NCBI GenBank assembly: GCA_963662615.2
Contig: CAXXSR010000001.1
Coordinates: 960,001 to 1,024,000 of the forward strand
Origin: Dehalococcoidia bacterium
GTDB taxonomy: Bacteria > Chloroflexota > Dehalococcoidia > Bin125
Direction: 5' to 3'
DNA: 64,000 bases
The notes below the pieces were generated by a model that worked only from the letters and a program-made list of their open reading frames with translations, was not told the origin of the DNA and searched no databases. The stretch's first letter is position 1; each line of letters starts with the position of its first letter. Shown here piece after piece: positions 5,973 through 52,348 of this stretch. The position numbers and the translations under genes are program-made.

Positions 5973-6701
5973 GTGCCCATGCCCGCCCCGTCCGGCGCCG
6001 TGTTGGGGAAGCTCTCGCTGACGGCCCTGCGGCGTTCGCTTCCTGCCCGCGCGCGCCTGCGCCGGCACTGGCTTGGGTTTCTCTGGACGGGGCTGCTCCT
6101 TGGTGGCGTGGCGATGGCCGTCTGGGCCTCGGTGGACGACCGCTTTCCCGCCGACGTCACGGTGGGCCGCTGGCTTCAGGACCATGATGTCGGCGGCCAG
6201 GAGCTGATCGACTTCCTGCGCGACGTGGGCGCCACTACCCCGGCGCTCGTGACCGTCCTGGTGATGGCGGCGACCCTGGCCGCGCTCAAGCGTCCGCGCA
6301 TGGCCGTGGTCGCGGCGGCCTTCGCGCTCGGCTTCGTGCTCCAGTGGCTGTTGAAGGAGTTGGTCGACCGGCCGCGCCCCGCCATGGATCTCTTGGAGCA
6401 TCGCACGACGTTCGGCTCCAGCAGCTTTCCCAGCGGCCACGCCATGAGCAGCGTGATCGCGGCGGGGCTGGTGCTCTATCTCTCGTTGCGCATCGCCGCT
6501 CCGCTGTGGCTGCGCGCGGGCGTGGCCGTGTGGACGCTGGGCGTGGGGCTGCTCAACCCCTGGGTGTCGGTGACGTCCGGCGTGCACTGGCCGTCCGACT
6601 CCCTGGGCGGCGTGGTGTGGGGATTGGTGGTGATCATTCCGGGCATCGTGCTGCTGGAACGAGTCGCCGCCGCCGACGCTCGCGCCAGAGCTGGTCGCTA
6701 G
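5973..6701 (+). CDS. PAP2 family membrane phosphatase
   Basis: KELVDRPRP, FPSGHA and GVHWPSD motifs; the motif-3 Arg appears replaced by Ser; multiple TMs. Start uncertain. Confidence 0.85.
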   Translation: MPMPAPSGAVLGKLSLTALRRSLPARARLRRHWLGFLWTGLLLGGVAMAVWASVDDRFPADVTVGRWLQDHDVGGQELIDFLRDVGATTPALVTVLVMAATLAALKRPRMAVVAAAFALGFVLQWLLKELVDRPRPAMDLLEHRTTFGSSSFPSGHAMSSVIAAGLVLYLSLRIAAPLWLRAGVAVWTLGVGLLNPWVSVTSGVHWPSDSLGGVVWGLVVIIPGIVLLERVAAADARARAGR

Positions 6702-6710
6702 AGCCGCACG

Positions 6711-7697
6711 CTAGAGCCGCACGCCGCTGCGCTCTGCGCCCAGATACGCCAGCGTTTGGCGCAGTGCGGCACGCAGGCCGAACAGCGGCGCGAAGCCGGT
6801 GGTTGAACGTAGGCGGGAGTCGTCGATGAGGTGGGGCCGGTCCACTAACTCCAGATAGCCGTCAACTCGGTCAGGGGCTCGCACGATCCAGGAGCTGAGC
6901 GTGCTGCTGCGCTGAGCCGCCCGCGCCAGGCGGTACGGTACCCAGACGAACCGCGCGCGGCGGCCCAGCAGCGAGTACGTCTCCTCGGCCAGCGAGCGCC
7001 AATCGCTGTCGATGCTCTTGACGTGGAAGATCCGGTCCCGTGTCTCGCTCAGCTGGTCAATGGTGCTCCAGACGGCCCGAGCCAAGTCCGGGGCGTAGGA
7101 GAGCGAAACGGGCTGACGCCCCCCGTCGATCAAGCGGGGCCGGAGCGTGTCCTGAAAGTGGAGCAAGATCCGATGCACCGGACCGGAATCGCGCGGGCCG
7201 AAGGCCAGGGCCGATCGCAGGACAATCAAGGGGATGCGACGGCGGTAGGTGCGCGCCGCGCGCTCGGCCATCACCAGGCTCTGCGCCAGCGGCGCTTGGG
7301 GGCGAAAGCTCCAGGTCTCGGCCACGGGCCAACTGGGCAATGATTCGCCGTACATCGCGGTGGAGGAGAGGTGAACGAACCCTTCCACGCCCGCGTCCAC
7401 GGAGGCGTCCAGGAGGTTGGTCGTACTCGTGACGTTGGCTTCTTCGTACTCCTCTTTGCTGTGGCCGCTGGTGGTCAGGCCCACGGCGTTGATCACCACC
7501 GTGGCCCCGGCCGCCGCCCGGCGCAGGGCGTCGCGGTCCGTGTGGTGGGCCCGCACGATGGTGAGCCCCAGCTCCGCCAGCCGCTCCACCGGGGCGCCCG
7601 GGCGGATCAGCGCCACCACCTCAACATCGTGACGCGCCAGCTCATCGACGATGTGGCCGCCAATGAAATCGCAGGCGCCGGCCACTACGATGCGCAC
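6711..7697 (-). CDS. extended SDR / NAD-dependent epimerase-like protein with degenerate active site
   Basis: Rossmann start VVAGACDFIGG and HLSSTAMYG; the YxxxK position reads LAQSL. Confidence 0.8.
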   Translation of the reverse strand: MRIVVAGACDFIGGHIVDELARHDVEVVALIRPGAPVERLAELGLTIVRAHHTDRDALRRAAAGATVVINAVGLTTSGHSKEEYEEANVTSTTNLLDASVDAGVEGFVHLSSTAMYGESLPSWPVAETWSFRPQAPLAQSLVMAERAARTYRRRIPLIVLRSALAFGPRDSGPVHRILLHFQDTLRPRLIDGGRQPVSLSYAPDLARAVWSTIDQLSETRDRIFHVKSIDSDWRSLAEETYSLLGRRARFVWVPYRLARAAQRSSTLSSWIVRAPDRVDGYLELVDRPHLIDDSRLRSTTGFAPLFGLRAALRQTLAYLGAERSGVRL

Positions 7698-8520: not shown

Positions 8521-8577
8521 CCGCCATCCGGCGACTCCGGCGCTAGCCGCCATCCGGCGGCTCCGGCGTTAGCCGCC
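8517..8577. repeat. 26-bp tandem repeat between convergent stop codons
   Basis: TTAGCCGCCATCCGGCG.CTCCGGCG at 8517 and 8543, plus TTAGCCGCC at 8569. Confidence 0.8.
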
Positions 8578-9951
8578 CCCCGGCGGCTGGGGCTCCAGAT
8601 CGGCCAGCACCTCCATCTGGTAGTTCAGGCTGGGGTCCCAGAGCATGAAGCCTTGGCCGCCCGCCTCCGCCGATCCCTCGATCTGCGCCATCACTTGGGC
8701 GCGTCCGTAAAACAGCTTTTCTGCCTGATAGTCGTGGAAGTCCTGCAGCCACGGTCGCACCACGACATTGGGGAACGGCCGCAGCCGCTCCACTGCCAAG
8801 CTGACGCTGCTGAGGACCACGAGATACGGATCGGCCGGGGGGTAGTCGAGGCCGAACCATCCCGGCGTCCAGGTGCTGGGGTAGACCATGGGCGAGTAGT
8901 AATCCAGGTACGGAGCCATGTCCTCCAGAATCTGGCCAATGCCGTCGTCGTGGGCGATCACCGTCGTCTGGCCGAAGGTGTCGAAGGCGAGGGCGGCGCC
9001 GACGGCGTGCAGCGCCTGGGCCGCCTCCTGCGCGAACTGGGCGATGATGGCCGAGCGCTCGTCGCTGGTGGTGCCAATGCGCACCGCCGCGCCCGCGTCC
9101 GTGGGCAGACGTACGTAGTCGTACTGGACCTCCTCAAAGGTGCGGGCCGCGTTCACGCCGATCTCCACGTTGTGCCTTCGGGCGAGATCGCTGAAGGGGT
9201 CGGTCCAGGCGAGACCGATGGAGTCCCGAAAGATCTCTCCTTGCGGCGTGCGCACGGCGGTCTCGGGGTAGGCGCGGGCGAGGCGGCCGTCGAGGAAAGT
9301 GACGACCCGCGCGATGCGATGGATCCCCAACCGGCCCAGCTCATTGAAGAACGCTTCCAGATCCGTGCCGGTGTCTCGCACCGCGCCCATGTCGCGGGCA
9401 ATGTCGTTGGCCACCATGGGCAGGACGGCGCCGCCCTCGTCCTTGACGTCGATCACCAGCGACGACACGATGCCCGCACGGGCCAGGCCCAGGGCCCAGT
9501 CCAGGACCGCTTGGCGGCGCAGCTCGTCGTAGGGCACATAGATGGCGCGCACGTCCAAGGGAGCGACGTAGATCACGATGTAGTCGGCGGTGGTCTGCTG
9601 CCGCACGATGCGATACCCGGCCGCCACCACGTTGACCTGGTTCGTGCGGATGGCCGCGGGGATGCTGAAGCGCCCGTGGCGGTCGGTCTGCACTGACCGC
9701 TCGCCCGTGCCCACGTGCGCGCCGGCCAGGCGCACGGCGCGGCCATCCTCCCAGGTCATGACGAGGCCCTGCAGGGGACGATTGATGCGGAGCGGCCCGT
9801 CGGCCTGGGCCGCCTCCTCAACGCGAAGCTGCGGGACGCTGGAGCCGTCTGGAGCGACGCCCACTGCGGTGACGATTGGGGAGGGGGCGGTCCCGAGAAG
9901 GGAGAGCGCGAGTAGCGCCGCGATGGGGGCGGTGAATAGGGGGAGGCGCAT
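8569..9951 (-). CDS. secreted putative glycoside hydrolase (DUF4015-like) with N-terminal beta-sandwich
   Basis: Signal peptide; VIDVKDEGG, IARVVTF, EVQYDYVRLP, SPMVYPS, RPWLQDF, GFMLWDP motifs. Confidence 0.85.
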   Translation of the reverse strand: MRLPLFTAPIAALLALSLLGTAPSPIVTAVGVAPDGSSVPQLRVEEAAQADGPLRINRPLQGLVMTWEDGRAVRLAGAHVGTGERSVQTDRHGRFSIPAAIRTNQVNVVAAGYRIVRQQTTADYIVIYVAPLDVRAIYVPYDELRRQAVLDWALGLARAGIVSSLVIDVKDEGGAVLPMVANDIARDMGAVRDTGTDLEAFFNELGRLGIHRIARVVTFLDGRLARAYPETAVRTPQGEIFRDSIGLAWTDPFSDLARRHNVEIGVNAARTFEEVQYDYVRLPTDAGAAVRIGTTSDERSAIIAQFAQEAAQALHAVGAALAFDTFGQTTVIAHDDGIGQILEDMAPYLDYYSPMVYPSTWTPGWFGLDYPPADPYLVVLSSVSLAVERLRPFPNVVVRPWLQDFHDYQAEKLFYGRAQVMAQIEGSAEAGGQGFMLWDPSLNYQMEVLADLEPQPPGGG

Positions 9952-10044: not shown

Positions 10045-10410
10045 CTAGGTGCTGCGTTGGGCGTCCGCCTCTGCCGCCGCCTTGAGATTGGACAGCCCCT
10101 GGGTGACGGCCACCATGTAGGGCGTCGCGCCGCGGCCGAGCGAGATGATGTTGGAGACGGCGTGCCGGATGCCGTAGGGAGCGACTTGGACGGCGACCTC
10201 CGTGTGGCCGGACTCCGCCTTCAACGCGTAGCGGTAGCGCACGCGCAGGCCCCAGCCCATGCGGACGTCCAGCACCAACTGCCGCGGCGCCTCCTCGCGC
10301 ACGAGGCTGGCGCGCCCGCTGTCCAGGCCCGCCTGCACTTCGCGCCGGAGGGCGCGCCAGATCACGTCGGGAGAGGCCTGGATGGCGAAGGCGCGCTCAT
10401 TGCTTGCCAC
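10045..10410 (-). CDS. SRPBCC/START-like protein
   Basis: IQASPDVIWRAL...GLSNLKAAAE pattern. Confidence 0.65.
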   Translation of the reverse strand: MASNERAFAIQASPDVIWRALRREVQAGLDSGRASLVREEAPRQLVLDVRMGWGLRVRYRYALKAESGHTEVAVQVAPYGIRHAVSNIISLGRGATPYMVAVTQGLSNLKAAAEADAQRST

Positions 10411-10459
10411 GGGCCGAGCCTATCACGCGCCGGCCGCATCCCCTGGAGGCGCCGGCGGC

Positions 10460-11062
10460 CTAATCGGTCGCGGTTCGAGCCTCCGCCTGCAGCGCTGCAA
10501 TGAAGGCGTGCAGGCTCTCCCGGCGAGTGACGTCGGGCGGGTAGGCGAGCCCGCGATTGCGGGGCCAATCGATCAGGTCCACCTGGACGCCGTCGCGGGC
10601 CAGCAGCGCCGCGGTGGCGGCGTCGTCTTCCACGTGACGCACGACGCCCAGGAGGCGCGCACGCTCCCGCTTGAATTGCGCCGCCGGGGCGCCGCTGTCG
10701 TTGAGGTGGACCGCGTCGAGATAGGGGAGGATGCCGTGGCGGTGAAGCCAGCCCTCGGTGGCGGCGCGACCGCGCCAGTTGCGGGCGCTGAGGAGGCTGA
10801 CACGGTATCGCTGGGCCGCCGCCGCCACTGCCGCCGCCGCCTCCGGCAGGGGCGACCGGCCGCCATAGCGGAGGGGGTAGTAGGCCCGCGCCAGCAAGCG
10901 CTCCCAGAAGGTCCAGCCGCCTTCGCCAGGGGCGGCTCCTTCCTGGGTCGCGGGCTGACCCTGCAGGGCGCGATTGATCGTCAGGTTGAGGCCCAGGGGT
11001 GGGCGCGCCAAGACGCCGTCCAGGTCGAAGGTGAGCAGGGGGCGCTCCGCCCCGTCAGCCAT
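10460..11062 (-). CDS. HAD-superfamily hydrolase
   Basis: FDLDGV motif I, LSAR motif II, K...HVEDD motifs III/IV; start overlaps the stop of the upstream reductase. Confidence 0.8.
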   Translation of the reverse strand: MADGAERPLLTFDLDGVLARPPLGLNLTINRALQGQPATQEGAAPGEGGWTFWERLLARAYYPLRYGGRSPLPEAAAAVAAAAQRYRVSLLSARNWRGRAATEGWLHRHGILPYLDAVHLNDSGAPAAQFKRERARLLGVVRHVEDDAATAALLARDGVQVDLIDWPRNRGLAYPPDVTRRESLHAFIAALQAEARTATD

Positions 11063-12051
11063 CAGATCCAACCGTTCGCCCGATACCAGACCACCGTTGC
11101 CCGCAGCCCCTCCGCCAGTGACGTCCGCGGCGTCCAACCCGTGCAGGCGGCGAGCGCCGTGTTGTCCGACAGCCAAGCGACCTGTCGCATCTCGGCGACG
11201 CGTGAGCTGTCGAGCCGGGGAGGTTTACGGCTGAGGCGGGCAGCGGCCATGCTCGCCCGCGCGGCGATGGCGAAGCCCAGGGCCGGCACGGGGATGGACA
11301 CGATCCGGTGGCCGAAGGCGTCGGCCAGCGCGGCGATGATCTCCCGCCAGGTGTAGGGGCCGGCGCCGTCGCTGAGGTGGAAATAGGGGGACGGGGCCGG
11401 CGCGACGGCGAGGAGCGAGACGACGGCCTCGGCGAGGTCGGGGCCGTAGACGAGATCGAACCGGTTCCAGCCGTCTCCCAACCGCGTGATGAAGCGCCGC
11501 CGCGCCATCTGGAAAAACGGGAGGAGCCCGCTGTCGCGCGGGCCGTAGACCAGGGACGGCCGCAGGATTTGCACGGCCCCGCCCTTGGCGCCGGCCAGCG
11601 CCGCCGCCTCGCCGGCGGCCTTCGAATCGCCGTACGGGGTGATGGGATGGCAGGGCGCGGCCGGGTCAGGGGCATCGCCCTGGCTGCTGGGTCCCTGCGC
11701 GGCCAGCGAAGAGATGTAGAGAAAGCGCGGCACGGCGGCGGCGGCGGCGGCGCGGGCGAGCGCTGCGGTCCCCTGCGCGTTGACGCGGTGGAAGTCCGAC
11801 CCGGTGCGCGCTCTCGTCACGCCGGCCGCATGGACCACGGCGTCCATGCCGGCGCAGGCCGGGGTGAGACCCACGCCGCCGGGGTCGGGTCCGCCCAAGT
11901 CGCCCACGACACGCTCGTAGCGCAGCCCTTCCAGGCCGGAGAGGTCGCTGCTGGACCGGACCAGCGCGCGCAGGTCGTGCCCCGCCGCGATCAAGGCGTG
12001 GGCTGTGTGACCGCCAATAAAGCCGCTGGCGCCGGTGAGCAGTACGCGCAT
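11062..12051 (-). CDS. NAD-dependent epimerase/dehydratase family (candidate ketosphingoid/ceramide reductase)
   Basis: TGASGFIG, HAAG, ISSLAA and catalytic YGDSK; directly downstream of the SPT-like gene. Confidence 0.85.
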   Translation of the reverse strand: MRVLLTGASGFIGGHTAHALIAAGHDLRALVRSSSDLSGLEGLRYERVVGDLGGPDPGGVGLTPACAGMDAVVHAAGVTRARTGSDFHRVNAQGTAALARAAAAAAVPRFLYISSLAAQGPSSQGDAPDPAAPCHPITPYGDSKAAGEAAALAGAKGGAVQILRPSLVYGPRDSGLLPFFQMARRRFITRLGDGWNRFDLVYGPDLAEAVVSLLAVAPAPSPYFHLSDGAGPYTWREIIAALADAFGHRIVSIPVPALGFAIAARASMAAARLSRKPPRLDSSRVAEMRQVAWLSDNTALAACTGWTPRTSLAEGLRATVVWYRANGWI

Positions 12052-12058
12052 GGCCTGC

Positions 12059-13339
12059 TCAACTGATGATGCTGTGACGCCGTCCGAGCTCGCCGAACAT
12101 GTCCAGGGCACGCTGGAGCTGCTCGTCGGTGTGCGTGGCGATGTAGGACGTGCGCAGCGCCCCCTGGCCGCGCGGGACGGCGGGGAGGATCACGGCGTTG
12201 GTGTAGATCCCGTGTTTCAGCAGATCCTTCCAGAAGACGGCAGTGCGGACCTCGTCGCCGATCTTGATCGGCACGATGGGCGTCTCGCTCTCGCCGATGT
12301 CGAACCCCATCGCACGCAGGCCCGCCCGCATGCGCGCGCCCAGCTCCTGGACCCGCTCCACCCGCCAGGGCTCCTCCTCCAGACAGGTCAGCGCCGCCAG
12401 CGCCGCGGCGGCCGAGGCGGGCGGCAGCGATGCGGTGAAGATCATGGGGCGGCCGAAATGCTTGATGTATTCCAACACGGGCGCCGGCCCCGCACAGAAT
12501 CCACCCACGGACGCCAGCGTCTTGCTGAACGTCCCGATCAGGATGTCCGCTCCCTGCCCGTCGATGCCGAAGTGGCTGGCGGTGCCGCGGCCGCCTTCAC
12601 CCACGGTGCCAATGGCGTGCGCATCATCCACCATCAGCCGCGTCTTGTGACGCCGGCAGACCTCAACGATCTCGGGCAGGGGCGCAATGTCGCCGCCCAT
12701 GGAGTAGACGCCGTCGATGATCACCAGTCGGCCGGCGTCATCGGGCAATCGGTCCAAGATCTCGTCCAGGTGCTCCGGTTCGTTATGGCGGAAGCGCACC
12801 GCCTCACCGGGCGCCATGGCGACGCCGTCGTAGATGCTGGCGTGGACCCCCTTATCGATCACGGCGGTGCAGCCGCGATCGACAATGGCGGAGATGGCGC
12901 CCAGGTTGGCGAGATAGCCGGTTGAAAAGACCAGCGCCGCTTCCGTTCCCAAGAAGGCGGCGATGCGCTCTTCCAATTCCTCGTGGAGCACGCTGGTGCC
13001 GTTGAGCAGGCGCGACCCGGTCATGGAGGGGCCAAGGTTCTCCAGCGCCTCCCGCGCCGCCGCCATCACTTTGGGGTGGCGCGTCAGCCCCAGGTAGTTG
13101 TTGGAGCCCAGCATGAGCACCCGCTGGCCTTGGACGATGGCCTCGTCGCCATAGTTGACGTCGATGGGTTGGAAGAACGGGTACAGGCCCACGGCGCGCG
13201 CCTGGGCGGCGAGCTGGAAGTGGGAGATCCGCTGGAAGATGTCCGTGCCCTTGTAGTCGTGATGGCGGCCCTCGATCTCGTCGAGGGAGAGGCCCGCCGA
13301 GATCGCGGCAACCCGTTCCAGATCTTGGGCCTGCGTCAT
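12059..13339 (-). CDS. spt: serine palmitoyltransferase-like alpha-oxoamine synthase (PLP)
   Basis: YPFFQPI, GSNNYLGL, TGSRLLNGT, HASIYDG, DDAH and GTFSK (PLP Lys). SRxLNGT and GTFSK are SPT-type rather than BioF- or KBL-type. Confidence 0.8.
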   Translation of the reverse strand: MTQAQDLERVAAISAGLSLDEIEGRHHDYKGTDIFQRISHFQLAAQARAVGLYPFFQPIDVNYGDEAIVQGQRVLMLGSNNYLGLTRHPKVMAAAREALENLGPSMTGSRLLNGTSVLHEELEERIAAFLGTEAALVFSTGYLANLGAISAIVDRGCTAVIDKGVHASIYDGVAMAPGEAVRFRHNEPEHLDEILDRLPDDAGRLVIIDGVYSMGGDIAPLPEIVEVCRRHKTRLMVDDAHAIGTVGEGGRGTASHFGIDGQGADILIGTFSKTLASVGGFCAGPAPVLEYIKHFGRPMIFTASLPPASAAAALAALTCLEEEPWRVERVQELGARMRAGLRAMGFDIGESETPIVPIKIGDEVRTAVFWKDLLKHGIYTNAVILPAVPRGQGALRTSYIATHTDEQLQRALDMFGELGRRHSIIS

Positions 13340-13454
13340 GGCATTCCACCGTTTCTCGTTGCCGGCCATGAGCCCGCGCGGGCGCGCAGTCAGTCCGCGC
13401 CGGCGAGGCTGTCGTCAGTGTAGGCAGAACCCAAGGGCAAAGGGTAGCGGCGGC

Positions 13455-14225
13455 CTAGGTCTCGGCCCAGCGGCGTGGCAGGCGCGGTCGCGACCAGCGT
13501 CGCAGTGTCGCGCGGATGCGTGCGCCGTGGCGCTCCAACTGTGTCGCGACGATCATGCCGAAGACGGCGACCGGCACGCCCAGGACGGCGTCAAGGATCC
13601 AGTGGTTGCCGGTCCCCACGATGCTGATCAGCATGATCGTGGGCAGGAGGATCAGCAGCGCCAGGCCGCGACGGCCGCCGAAGACGCGGTACAGCACGAC
13701 GCCGACGATGAGGGCGAATCCCTGATGCATGCTGGGGACGGCCGCAAACTGGTTGACGAATCCGGAATCTCCATACTGGAGCGCGAACACGCCACGGATG
13801 GTGTCCACGAAGCCCGCGGCGGGCAGGAGGCGGGGTGGCGCCACCGGAAACGTCAGGTAGACCAGCAGGCCAATGGCGCCGGCCGCGAAGATGGCGCTGC
13901 GCGCCCAAGCGTAATGGCGGCGGTGGCGACAGAAAGCCCATACCGCGAACGCGATCATGAGCGGAAAGTGACCCCAGAAGTACCACAGGCTCAGAAGCTT
14001 GATCACGAAGTCGTAGCTCAGCAGCGCGACTTGGAAGTTGAGCTCCACGAAGATGCCCATGGCCTGTTCCGTGCGAACCAGGAGGTCGGCGTTGGCGATG
14101 GCGTCCAGCGCCCGATCGGCCGACAGCGAACGCACGATCTCGTACGCCATGTAGGCGCCGCTGACGAGGAGCACCTCACGGGCGAAGCGGATCGCCGGAA
14201 GCCGTTGGGTGGCCTTCTTGATCAT
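13455..14225 (-). CDS. AUR1/inositolphosphorylceramide synthase-like PAP2_3 membrane protein
   Basis: FPVAPPRL, NQFAAVPSMH and TGNHWILDA motifs; about 6 TMs. Confidence 0.85.
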   Translation of the reverse strand: MIKKATQRLPAIRFAREVLLVSGAYMAYEIVRSLSADRALDAIANADLLVRTEQAMGIFVELNFQVALLSYDFVIKLLSLWYFWGHFPLMIAFAVWAFCRHRRHYAWARSAIFAAGAIGLLVYLTFPVAPPRLLPAAGFVDTIRGVFALQYGDSGFVNQFAAVPSMHQGFALIVGVVLYRVFGGRRGLALLILLPTIMLISIVGTGNHWILDAVLGVPVAVFGMIVATQLERHGARIRATLRRWSRPRLPRRWAET

Positions 14226-14540: not shown

Positions 14541-15038
14541 ATGGGCAGCCCAGCGGTCGCCGAGGAGTGGGTCCACACCCTGTTCAACAAGATCAGCCGG
14601 GCCTACAACGCGCATGACGCCGCTGCCACGGCCGACTGCTACGCCGAGGATTTGCTCTTCACCGTCAACGGCGAACGCGGTCCCCGTGATCGGGATGCCT
14701 TCGTGGAAGCGCTACGCGAACAGTGGCTGGGCTTTCCCGACATTGCCTGCAGCGAATCCTCCCGCCTCATCCGGGGCAACCGGGTGGTCATGGAGTTCAC
14801 GCTGGACGGCCACAACGCGGGACCGTTCCTTGACCGCCCGCCCACGGGGAAGCGCTGGTGCGTGACCTTGAGCTGGATCTGCGAAGTGGCGGACGGGCGT
14901 GTGCGTGAGGTCCACGCCTATGTCGATAACGAGCCGCTGCGCAGGGCCGTGGACCGCGCCGCTCTTACGCCGTCGGCCTCGCCGAGCCAGCTGCCGCCGG
15001 CCTCCCGGTCCTGTAGGCTCCACCTCCTGCTCCTGTAG
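14541..15038 (+). CDS. SnoaL-like ester cyclase / NTF2 family protein
   Basis: AYNAHD...GFPD...GHNAGPFLDRPPTGK...DGRV; GGGAGG RBS preceded by TACAAT. Confidence 0.8.
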   Translation: MGSPAVAEEWVHTLFNKISRAYNAHDAAATADCYAEDLLFTVNGERGPRDRDAFVEALREQWLGFPDIACSESSRLIRGNRVVMEFTLDGHNAGPFLDRPPTGKRWCVTLSWICEVADGRVREVHAYVDNEPLRRAVDRAALTPSASPSQLPPASRSCRLHLLLL

Positions 15039-49832: not shown

Positions 49833-52348
49833 GGCGGGGTGCGGCGCAACGGAATGAGAATAAGGATTCAGAGTTCGCGATCTAGTGATCCTGGGCCTGA
49901 CGGCGGTCGTCGCGCTGCGGCTGGCTCAGCTTTCGGGGGCAGGTCACTCTTGTGTGCCGTTGAACTCATGTGAGCATTCGTAAGCCTACCGGATCCACTA
50001 GCCTAGCCATGTCTATCGGTTTCGCCACAATGGGGGCCTAGCGCCTGCAAGCGAGTCCTTGGATTGCGCGGCGTCGGGAGTTTGACTGTCTTGAACGACG
50101 CGCTCAGGGTCCTGCGTTACATCCTCGACCTGTCTCATTGGGCCGTGCAACGCTGGCGTCGATTTCGCGGAGACGCACCAGGCGTCTCCTACTGGCTGCT
50201 TCGCCCTCCTTCATTAGGCGATTTGTTCGTGGATCGGAAAGAGGAAATTGATGCGCTGAAGAAGGCTGTCAAGAACCATGGAATCGTTGTCGTATATGGG
50301 ATCGCCGGGACTGGGAAGTCGCGGTTCGCCGTCGAATTCAGTCATCGGCGAAAAACTAAGGGGTTCTGGGTCCCTTTCGCGGGATCCGTGGACAGCACGC
50401 TCGCAACGCTCGCCCCGCAGCTTGGAGAAGCACCTACCGCCGCCTCGGAAGCAGAATTGTCAATGTTCGCACGGCGGCGACTCTCTCAGCTTCCCAAGAA
50501 GCCTCTACTGATCATCGACAACATACCGAGCGTCTCGTTGCTTTCGAATCTCATGCCCATTGTGCAGAGTGCGACGGTCCTATGCACGACTCGCGATGAC
50601 AGCGTCCACGCCCTCCCTCCCGGCACAGGTACCGTCGCAGTCGGTGTGCTCGATCCGTCTTCGGCGAAAAAGATGCTCTTATCGAGAGGGCGACACGACC
50701 CTAACAATCCGGCGTTGGATGAGTTGATAGTCGCAGTTGGCGCCCTCCCCTATGCATTGGAAATGCTTGCTATCAGGCTCGGCGATGCCGGCGAGTCCCC
50801 GCAGTCCCTCCTTCGCAAGATCAGATCGAAGTCTTCCGCGGTGGAGTTTGAAGCTTTCCGCTCGACTGAGGGGGTCTCTTTCCCACATGCAGAGAGCATT
50901 TTTGAGGCGATCGTGGGAGCACTGGATGATTTACCTCAAAGCGCGCGAGCAGTGGTCGGGCGTCTCGCGTATGTGAGTGACGGACCAATACCAAGGGTGA
51001 TGGCCCGGATGCTCAACGAAGAATCTGATGAGGACTTCGAGGCCGCACTTCGTGAGTTGCGCAGGCGTGGATTGGCACAGGTCAGTGGGGACTGGCTGTT
51101 CATGCACCCGCTGACGAAGTCAGCTATCGCCGCGACGAATGAGAGATCGGTTCTTCGCCAGACTCTCGGGTCCATGAGTCATGTACTGAGATTCGTGGAC
51201 GAAACCTTCGGCCTTGCGCCGCCGATTTTTCTCTGGCACGGGATGGCCGTGCTGACTCGAACGAAAGTGCTTGGACTTCGAGATCGTAGCGTTGCAGCGT
51301 TCGCCAACCAGCTCGGCATTTCCCTTCGCCGTGCAGGCCGCCTGGCTGAATCGATATCGCTCCTTGAGTTTGTGCTAGAAGTCAGGGCGGAAGTCGACGG
51401 TCACGAGCACTTCGACACTCTGGCGTCTCGCTATAACCTCTGTATGGCGTACTCAGATGTCGGCAGAATTGGCGAAGCAGTCGAAGGTTTGCAGGTGGTC
51501 CGCGAGAAGCTCTCGACTGATCCCGCACATGAGCGCGAATTTCTACACACGGCGATGGCACTCGACCACGCTCACTACCTGAAGGGGGAGACTGCGGAGG
51601 CAATCAAACTTTACGAACAGTATCTAGATCGGGTCGTAGCGACTTTTGGCGAGGGATCTGCCGAACACGTCACATATCTCGGCAACGTGGCACTCGCCTA
51701 CCGGAGGTCCGGGCGAATGGAGGAAGCGGTAAATTGCCAGCTAAAGGCTACACAGACTCTCGAGGACAAGCTCGGTCCTGACCATCTCGATACCCTCCTC
51801 GCGAATATGAACCTGGCTTCCAGCTACCGGAGATTGGGCCGTCTCGACAAGGCGGGCCCGATTCTTGATGAGACCGTCGCTCGCATGCATAGGATGCTTG
51901 GAGCGGAGCACCAGATCACGCTCGCCGCAAGCGATGAACTTGCGGCTTGTTACGCGGAAGTTGGCGATTTCGAACGTGCCCTCCCCCTTCACAGCTTCGC
52001 CGTTGACGGCCTGAAAAGGCTACTCGGTAATGCGCATCCCGAAACTGTGAGTGCGAGAATGCTCTTCGCAGTAACTAGTGTGCTGGCAGCGAAGGAGGGA
52101 AAAGGATCACGTCTCGACGCGGAGTCGAGAATTTCCGATGTTGAGAAAGCGCTGTCTGCACTCCAGTCAGATTTGGGACCCGATCATCCCCGCGCGGTGG
52201 AGGTACGGACAGGTCTCGCCGAGGCTCGCAAAGTGCTGGAGGCTCCAACGTAGCCGGCGGCGAACACAGCGCGGAGGTCCTCAAAGAGCGCCTGGGCTAC
52301 ACGGACGACCAGATCGCGGAGCTGGTCGCTGGGGGAGTCGTCGCTTAG
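49743..52348. mobile_element. horizontally acquired islet bounded by 90-bp imperfect direct repeats (CoA-transferase 3' end)
   Basis: 49743-49832 and 52259-52348 match at 74/90 by manual codon comparison; the interior has visibly lower GC; no integrase seen. Confidence 0.65.
50064..52253 (+). CDS. STAND NTPase (NB-ARC) with C-terminal TPR repeats (NLR-like)
   Basis: FVDR, Walker A GIAGTGKS, Walker B LLIIDN, GALPYAL, MHPL and LGPDH.DTL-type TPRs. Start uncertain. Confidence 0.88.
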   Translation: MRGVGSLTVLNDALRVLRYILDLSHWAVQRWRRFRGDAPGVSYWLLRPPSLGDLFVDRKEEIDALKKAVKNHGIVVVYGIAGTGKSRFAVEFSHRRKTKGFWVPFAGSVDSTLATLAPQLGEAPTAASEAELSMFARRRLSQLPKKPLLIIDNIPSVSLLSNLMPIVQSATVLCTTRDDSVHALPPGTGTVAVGVLDPSSAKKMLLSRGRHDPNNPALDELIVAVGALPYALEMLAIRLGDAGESPQSLLRKIRSKSSAVEFEAFRSTEGVSFPHAESIFEAIVGALDDLPQSARAVVGRLAYVSDGPIPRVMARMLNEESDEDFEAALRELRRRGLAQVSGDWLFMHPLTKSAIAATNERSVLRQTLGSMSHVLRFVDETFGLAPPIFLWHGMAVLTRTKVLGLRDRSVAAFANQLGISLRRAGRLAESISLLEFVLEVRAEVDGHEHFDTLASRYNLCMAYSDVGRIGEAVEGLQVVREKLSTDPAHEREFLHTAMALDHAHYLKGETAEAIKLYEQYLDRVVATFGEGSAEHVTYLGNVALAYRRSGRMEEAVNCQLKATQTLEDKLGPDHLDTLLANMNLASSYRRLGRLDKAGPILDETVARMHRMLGAEHQITLAASDELAACYAEVGDFERALPLHSFAVDGLKRLLGNAHPETVSARMLFAVTSVLAAKEGKGSRLDAESRISDVEKALSALQSDLGPDHPRAVEVRTGLAEARKVLEAPT

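Follow-up and report, generated by a model that had tools for sequence, protein, structure and literature searches.

A candidate ceramide pathway locus with a putative phospho-head-group transferase in an uncultured family of Dehalococcoidia (Chloroflexota)

The window analysed here is a stretch of 64,000 nucleotides (G000:C1:960001-1024000) from the genome of a Dehalococcoidia bacterium of the phylum Chloroflexota. The genome is 2.66 Mb in size, lies on two contigs and is 93.6% complete, and the G+C content of the window is ~69%. Five co-directional open reading frames (ORFs) are present on the minus strand at 10045-14225, with a G+C content at third codon positions (GC3) of 0.84-0.93, and together they probably make up the core of the route by which an uncultured family of the class would form ceramides (sphingolipids) with a head group attached through phosphate. 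In the order in which they are read, the genes encode a polytopic membrane protein of 256 aa from the PAP2_3 (Aur1/inositol-phosphoceramide synthase) family, PF14378, which is the proposed ceramide phospho-head-group transferase (13455-14225); an Spt-like alpha-oxoamine synthase (AOS) of 436 aa and PF00155 (12059-13369); a CerR-like extended short-chain dehydrogenase/reductase (SDR) of ~329 aa and PF01370, a putative 3-keto reductase (11062-12051); a HAD-fold phosphatase-like protein of 200 aa from the ATG at 11062, recognised by an AlphaFold2 (AF2) model, Foldseek and motifs (10460-11062); and a small START/SRPBCC-like protein of 121 aa, a proposed lipid binder tentatively assigned from an AF2 model and weak Foldseek matches (10045-10410). 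The AOS stop codon lies 7 nt from the SDR ATG at 12051, which is the likely start of that gene (its longest ORF starts at 12111), and the SDR stop and the HAD ATG overlap as TGATG at 11062; the AOS, SDR and HAD genes are translationally coupled. The other intergenic gaps are 85 nt (PAP2_3 to AOS) and 49 nt (HAD gene to the 121-aa gene). All 18 family loci that were examined share the order AOS-SDR-HAD-START-like, which means that chance does not account for the arrangement. An earlier note on this DNA had described five co-directional genes at this place with the central three tightly coupled, and had made the reading depend on a conserved gene order; all five genes are indeed on the minus strand, the 7-nt spacing and the TGATG overlap bear out the coupling, and the order is kept within the family. 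The note had also placed the AOS gene at 12059-13339, of which the stop end is retained and the start is moved to 13369, because the relatives align from residue 2.

The AOS matches PF00155 with 200 bits, carries the motifs YPFFQ, TGSRLLNGT and GTFSK, and is the sole AOS in the genome. Its closest named relatives belong to metagenome-assembled genomes (MAGs) labelled 'Dehalococcoidia bacterium' at 60-63% identity, and genomes of the same family reach 67-80%. Among solved structures, the highest scores were obtained with bacterial serine palmitoyltransferases (SPTs; 348, 315, and 310 bits), followed by Thermus BioF/KBL (271), Kbl (234), cysteate acyltransferase (220), ALAS (215), BioF (211), and CqsA (139). 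The best NCBIfam models for the protein are likewise Spt models, with 431 and 403 bits, and the bioF model TIGR00858 scores 373.5. Twelve active-site residues have been named for the SPT of S. multivorum (PMC10196870), and 11 of them are identical in the AOS when mapped by hand on the structure-hit alignment. The conserved positions include K283 (of GTFSK), H176, D248, H251, and S223, which correspond to K244, H138, D210, H213, and S185 of the S. multivorum enzyme, as well as T280, S282, N90, G118, and S119, which correspond to T241, S243, N52, G80, and S81. The twelfth residue, Met271, is replaced by Ile310 in the AOS; Met271 has been described as contacting the substrate through its main chain (PMC10196870).

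A quick IQ-TREE phylogeny of 106 rows, which took in the BioF and Kbl of E. coli together with three second paralogues found in relatives and no experimentally characterised Spt, placed the AOS of the window and 18 family AOS in one clade (support 99). The sister group of this clade (support 100) consists of five Dehalococcoidia AOS, each encoded beside a gene resembling the bacterial ceramide synthase (bCerS). The Spt-like clade as a whole contains 101 rows (support 99) and is separate from E. coli BioF, Kbl, and the three second paralogues; the latter sit in bioA-bioF-bioD clusters and are therefore BioF. Judged from sequence, the assignment of the AOS as an Spt-type enzyme, and with it the sphingolipid interpretation of the locus, is supported.

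The SDR matches PF01370 with 110 bits and contains GASGFIGGH and YGDSK. Since it begins directly with the NAD-binding motif, it has no signal peptide. The SDRs of three canonical spt-bcerS-SDR clusters (L013, L072, and L044) find the operon SDR as their best match in the genome, with 171-191 bits against 71-99 bits for the next protein, and the operon SDR is their reciprocal best hit.

The genome also encodes a candidate for the acyltransferase that completes a ceramide. The 64-kb window itself lacks a bCerS-like gene. A profile built from eight Spt-adjacent proteins has a single match in the genome, an intact frame of 399 aa at G000:C1:1917667-1918785 (E 1.6e-125), which lies on the same contig at a distance of ~945 kb from the operon and is surrounded by unrelated genes. 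The protein has a weak match to PF00583, and the bCerS-like proteins had no match among the NCBIfam models. Such a gene is present in all of the 24 family relatives, and it is unlinked from spt in all family genomes searched. Elsewhere in the class it was found in two of 16 other genomes, G025 and G028, which are those with an AOS of 51% identity, so that in total it co-occurs with an Spt-like AOS in the 26 relatives having a full-length copy. Of 80 loci from other lineages, 33 also have a bCerS-like ORF (weakly GNAT-like, ~375 aa) in the vicinity of the AOS, often together with an extended SDR, and this spt-bcerS-cerR arrangement matches descriptions in the portions of published work consulted (PMC11334938, PMC11087976, PMC11324152). 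One of the Dehalococcoidia MAGs has a gene of the histidine phosphatase superfamily (PF00300; L013:8279-8815, plus strand) between spt and bcerS; it represents a second, unrelated spt-linked phosphatase.

The first gene of the operon encodes a PAP2_3 protein (PF14378, 132.4 bits against a cut-off of 27), a family to which fungal Aur1 presumably also belongs. The motifs PSxH (PSMH, H167) and NHxxxD (NHWILD, H208 and D212), which we take to be the catalytic His/His/Asp motifs of PAP2 enzymes, are invariant in eight sequences. The sole NCBIfam match of the protein is the phosphatidylinositol-dihydroceramide (PI-DHC) synthase model NF052609 (E 7e-07), and in the ESM Atlas it falls in PAP2_3 clusters, mostly of Actinomycetota, which gave no functional clue. 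Orthologues with 57-67% identity are present in 10 of the 24 family relatives and lie directly upstream of spt in all 10. Divergent PF14378 genes are found directly beside spt or bcerS in four of the 80 loci from other lineages; these four are labelled Thermodesulfobacteriota, delta proteobacterium, Bacteroidetes, and Aminicenantes, and two of them (L072 and L074) are closely related to each other. Their occurrence in other phyla offers independent support for a head-group role, which we infer for the PAP2_3 protein of the operon. Contigs from two RNA libraries cover the operon at 13295-13826 only, one at 13448-13826 and the other at 13295-13573, and the latter bridges the PAP2_3/AOS junction; these are a hint of expression, not a proof. 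In a consensus scan, neither a promoter nor a terminator of the operon could be recognised convincingly; a single promoter-like site is present downstream of it (10010-9982), and the terminator-like sites around it are about as many as expected by chance. A second PAP2_3 paralogue contains three in-frame TGA codons in G005:C1:25164-25901 and two in G007:C1:70800-71540.

An inositol-lipid cluster is located at ~1495.7-1504 kb of the same contig (G000:C1; L128) and encodes an IMPase, MIPS, two HtrB-like acyltransferases, a PHP protein, a GT4 glycosyltransferase, and a CDP-alcohol phosphatidyltransferase that is one of only two in the genome. Phosphatidylserine decarboxylase was not found in the genome at its 93.6% completeness. 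Because of the MIPS gene in this cluster and the missing decarboxylase, phosphoinositol is the favoured head group, and phosphatidylinositol is a plausible donor. The cluster is also reminiscent of actinobacterial PIM genes.

The last two genes of the operon have been characterised with AF2 models made from alignments of family orthologues. The 200-aa protein has no Pfam or NCBIfam match at E 0.01 or better. Its model (pLDDT 89.3) matches HAD hydrolases in Foldseek (E ~1e-6), the residues D13, D15, K131, D146, and D147, which form its DxD, K, and DD motifs, do not vary among 13 sequences, and the ESM Atlas places it in NT5C/FCP1-like HAD clusters, again with no functional clue. The 121-aa protein likewise has no Pfam or NCBIfam match and is shorter than typical SRPBCC members. 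Its model (pLDDT 87.9) gave weak but consistent Foldseek matches of the SRPBCC/START/Bet v 1 type, with a best E of 6.8e-4 and TM scores of 0.45-0.66; almost all of the highest-ranking matches are to SRPBCC-type proteins, and those at E ~1e-3 include CalU16, MLL2253 (TM 0.63), MSMEG_5634 (TM 0.66), CoxG, and PYR1. Both genes are in the operon in each of the 18 family loci. No SerB was detected above the cut-off in the genome. As a guess, the HAD protein could provide serine from phosphoserine or could dephosphorylate a lipid head group, and the START-like protein could hold hydrophobic intermediates or act as a lipid carrier. In a class genome with no match to the bCerS-like profile, a homologue of the HAD-like gene adjoins a 749-aa fatty acyl reductase-acyltransferase fusion and another HAD gene (L143:5484-9159).

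Taken together, gene content, homology, folds, synteny, and co-occurrence suggest the following pathway, in which the catalytic activities, the order of the second and third steps, the head group, and the accessory roles are inferred. The Spt-type enzyme (12059-13369) would condense L-serine with a long-chain acyl thioester to form 3-ketosphinganine, the bCerS-like N-acyltransferase encoded ~945 kb away would add the second acyl chain, and the CerR-like SDR (11062-12051) would reduce the 3-keto group. The PAP2_3 protein (13455-14225) would then move a phospho-alcohol head group from a glycerophospholipid onto the ceramide; this would most likely be phosphoinositol from phosphatidylinositol, giving inositol-phosphoceramide as with Aur1 and Bacteroides BT_1522. 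The HAD-fold phosphatase and the START-like protein would be conserved accessory parts of the operon of this family. A ceramide-type core is highly probable. The chances that the PAP2_3 protein acts on ceramide appear evenly balanced, and inositol as the head group, that is, an inositol-phosphoceramide product, is held as a tentative possibility. Very unlikely as a whole is the most elaborate version, a rebuilt module in which Spt and CerR work with a dedicated START-like carrier of ceramide or long-chain bases as a bacterial counterpart of the eukaryotic CERT START domain, the HAD protein processes a phosphorylated head-group intermediate, and Aur1-type inositol-phosphoceramide synthesis takes place in a presumed single-membrane bacterium.

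Much of what the earlier note had proposed agrees with these results. It had read the locus as one for sphingoid bases in a Chloroflexota genome, and both parts stand. Its Spt-type AOS is borne out by the ranking of structures and by the position in the tree beside bCerS-linked AOS, and the phylogenetic grouping on which it had let this assignment hang sets the enzyme apart from BioF and Kbl. Its NAD-dependent reductase with YGDSK is a CerR-type SDR by reciprocal best hits with the SDRs of spt clusters, its HAD phosphatase has the HAD fold with invariant motifs, and its Aur1-family membrane protein belongs to PF14378 with 132.4 bits. The remark that the window contains no bCerS was also correct, and the genome-wide search that it had called for returned one match, outside the window. 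What did not hold is the suggestion drawn from that remark, that the product might be a non-ceramide lipid, in view of the bCerS-like gene elsewhere on the contig and in 24 of 24 family relatives. The description of the head-group transferase as eukaryote-like was overstated, for BT_1522 is a known bacterial Aur1 homologue with PI-dihydroceramide synthase function (PMC9246714).

A number of results weigh against the interpretation as a ceramide pathway with a phosphate-linked head group. The AOS falls under every NCBIfam Spt equivalog cut-off (431 bits against 640 for NF047600, 402.9 against 500 for NF047599, and 353 against 670 for NF047603), just as its 373.5 bits on the bioF model fall under the cut-off of 426 and its scores on the Kbl, ALAS, and CqsA models fall under theirs. 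Of the 11 conserved active-site residues, most bind pyridoxal phosphate and occur throughout the AOS family. The tree and alignments include no experimentally characterised Spt, bCerS, or CerR, and the labels 'bCerS-like' and 'CerR-like' express gene context and the descriptions given in papers. The PAP2_3 protein reaches 28.9 bits on NF052609 against a cut-off of 480, and it has no sequence match in the PDB at E <=1, either as a single sequence or as an eight-sequence profile. Its operon-type gene is present in only 10 of the 24 family relatives, with one further truncated copy (G015), and Spt and bCerS are present in all 24. A paralogue with 34-43% identity occurs in all 24 relatives and also in the class genomes G026, G030, G034, and G039, in which neither an Spt-like AOS nor a bCerS-like gene was detected; membership of the PAP2_3 family alone therefore implies no ceramide substrate, and the family has other jobs in the class as well. 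The RNA-library contigs cannot establish transcription or one single transcript. Concerning the accessory genes, neither the HAD-like nor the START-like gene is near the AOS in the 80 loci from other lineages, and in a sample of 151 class genomes homologues of the HAD-like gene were detected in 43, of which 27 are without a bCerS-like gene, and homologues of the START-like gene in 16, of which eight are without one. Outside the family, no shared neighbourhood theme was recognised for these homologues in 10 regions of class genomes. The sphingolipid link of the accessory genes is therefore specific to this family, and the presence of HAD-like homologues in just 43 of the 151 genomes does not indicate a general housekeeping role. 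Finally, at 93.6% completeness, genes that were not found in the genome are not thereby proven absent.

These results bear on several other explanations. In one of them, which seems rather unlikely, the AOS and SDR produce a long-chain amino-alcohol lipid and the PAP2_3 protein stands outside the pathway, working on glycerolipids or polyprenyl phosphates as a lipid phosphate phosphatase or transferase of general function. The score far under the cut-off of the PI-DHC synthase model, the 85-nt gap to spt, and the wide distribution of the paralogue would fit this explanation, as would the patchy occurrence of the operon-type gene, which is truncated in G015 and was not found beside the AOS in G020, a genome of the same genus. 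Against it are the position of the orthologue, which immediately precedes spt in each of the 10 genomes that have it, the PF14378 genes adjoining spt or bcerS in four of the 80 loci, the RNA-library contig across the PAP2_3/AOS junction, and the action of the characterised Aur1 and BT_1522 on ceramide (PMC9246714). An AOS that uses alanine, glycine, cysteate or another amino acid rather than serine, leading to a 1-deoxy, sulfono or other aminolipid, has a slim chance. Ding et al. have proposed the use of alanine by Spt-like enzymes and have hypothesised that of others such as lysine (PMC11334938), the S. multivorum SPT also accepts alanine and glycine, with far less efficiency (PMC10196870), and the AOS is under all Spt equivalog cut-offs. 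However, the SPT structures score 348-310 bits against 220 for cysteate acyltransferase, and Asn52, Gly80, and Ser81 of the S. multivorum enzyme, for which water-mediated contacts to L-serine have been described (PMC10196870), are conserved as N90, G118, and S119; an Aur1-type transferase would also need the C1 hydroxyl that derives from serine.

It is extremely unlikely that the pathway ends at a free or head-group-modified long-chain base with no ceramide synthase, which was the variant of the earlier note. The lack of a bCerS-like gene in the 64-kb window and its separation from spt in all family genomes searched would be expected in that case, but the intact 399-aa frame elsewhere on the contig (E 1.6e-125) and its co-occurrence with an Spt-like AOS in 26 relatives are not, and the presence of this gene resolves the caveat of a missing bCerS toward ceramide. 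The idea that the AOS is the BioF or Kbl of the organism, serving biotin or threonine metabolism among unrelated neighbours, is scarcely credible and has been rejected. As the sole AOS in the genome, scoring 373.5 bits on TIGR00858 and hit by the E. coli enzymes Kbl (215 bits) and BioF (193 bits), the protein could be taken for such an enzyme. Opposed to this, the genome has no bioD and no bioB above the cut-off, relatives with bioA-bioF-bioD clusters possess a separate BioF besides their Spt-like AOS, the tree splits the two groups with a support of 99, and in every one of the 18 family loci translational coupling joins the AOS gene to those for the SDR and the HAD protein. The ceramide pathway with a phosphate-linked head group remains the probable reading of the locus.

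Several other features of the window and of related genomes have been recorded. The gene immediately downstream of the operon, at 8569-9951 (minus strand), encodes a DUF4015 protein (putative glycosyl hydrolase-like) whose N-terminus resembles a signal peptide, and it is kept there in 15 of the 18 family loci. At 5973-6701 (plus strand), the window encodes a classical PAP2 lipid phosphatase (PF01569, 58.7 bits), next to a second extended SDR at 6711-7697 (minus strand), in which the YxxxK motif is absent by eye. The second SDR has tblastn matches in 13 of the 18 family loci, and the PAP2 region has them in five, via the antisense frame. On the other side of the operon and divergent from it, a SnoaL-like ORF of 165 aa (PF07366, 65 bits) is located at 14541-15038 (plus strand) inside a long spurious ORF. 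The G+C content decreases to 0.578 at 50001-52000, compared with ~0.69 elsewhere in the window. A separate bioA-bioF-bioD cluster has been found in the relatives L132, L133, and L134, with bioB in addition in L134; the genome studied here, being without bioD and without bioB above the cut-off, may need external biotin.

If the interpretation is true, a whole uncultured family of Dehalococcoidia would carry a complete ceramide pathway, with Spt-like and bCerS-like genes in 24 of 24 relatives, and about half of the family would also have a dedicated phospho-head-group transferase. The predicted sphingolipid producers among the Chloroflexota would then extend past the Anaerolineae and Caldilineae named in the published work used here, lipid geochemists would have a candidate source of phosphosphingolipids, and the roles of two conserved accessory genes, the HAD-like and the START-like gene, would be open to simple co-expression. 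Knowledge of the ceramide pathway itself is left unchanged by the finding.

Reports already exist on both Spt-like genes in Chloroflexota and an Aur1-like ceramide head-group transferase in bacteria. Spt-like AOS, recognised by their place in phylogenies and by the bCerS and CerR genes located with them, have been reported for 218 MAGs of Chloroflexota from the Black Sea (PMC11334938, PMC12619533). Anaerolineae and Caldilineae are named among them, the string 'Dehalococc' has no occurrence in the main texts, and the sections of these papers drawn on here describe no operon with PAP2_3, HAD, and START-like genes (PMC11334938, PMC12619533). No description of the operon was encountered in the literature searched on sphingolipids of Chloroflexota, Chloroflexi, and Dehalococcoidia. 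The Spt-bCerS-CerR pathway of Caulobacter, as presented in the passages used, consists of the same three types of protein, a soluble AOS, a GNAT-like acyltransferase of ~375 aa, and an NAD-binding extended SDR (PMC11087976/10.1101/2023.11.08.566215; PMC11324152). In contrast to that pathway, the operon of this family carries the PAP2_3, HAD-fold, and START-like genes instead of bcerS, there is no dedicated acyl carrier protein (ACP) or acyl-ACP synthetase gene adjoining spt, and the SDR is without a signal peptide, whereas the Caulobacter CerR has been reported to be periplasmic. Sister Dehalococcoidia lineages have one spt-bcerS-SDR cluster, whereas in this family bcerS is unlinked and ~945 kb away. 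As for the head group, BT_1522 of Bacteroides thetaiotaomicron, an Aur1 homologue, has been identified as a PI-dihydroceramide synthase by knockout (PMC9246714). Both BT_1522 and the PAP2_3 protein are polytopic and of the PAP2 type, the sole NCBIfam match of the latter is the family model of BT_1522, and the MIPS and CDP-alcohol phosphatidyltransferase of the Bacteroides inositol-lipid cluster (PMC9246714) are also encoded in this genome. The similarity to BT_1522 is nevertheless very weak (28.9 bits against 480), and the PAP2_3 gene here is beside spt and not beside MIPS. From fungal Aur1 the protein differs in that it has no sequence match to any solved structure, as a single sequence or as a profile. 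Overall, the locus is a well-supported instance of a known pathway, with a rearranged gene cluster and two accessory genes of unexplained role, rather than a new type of system.

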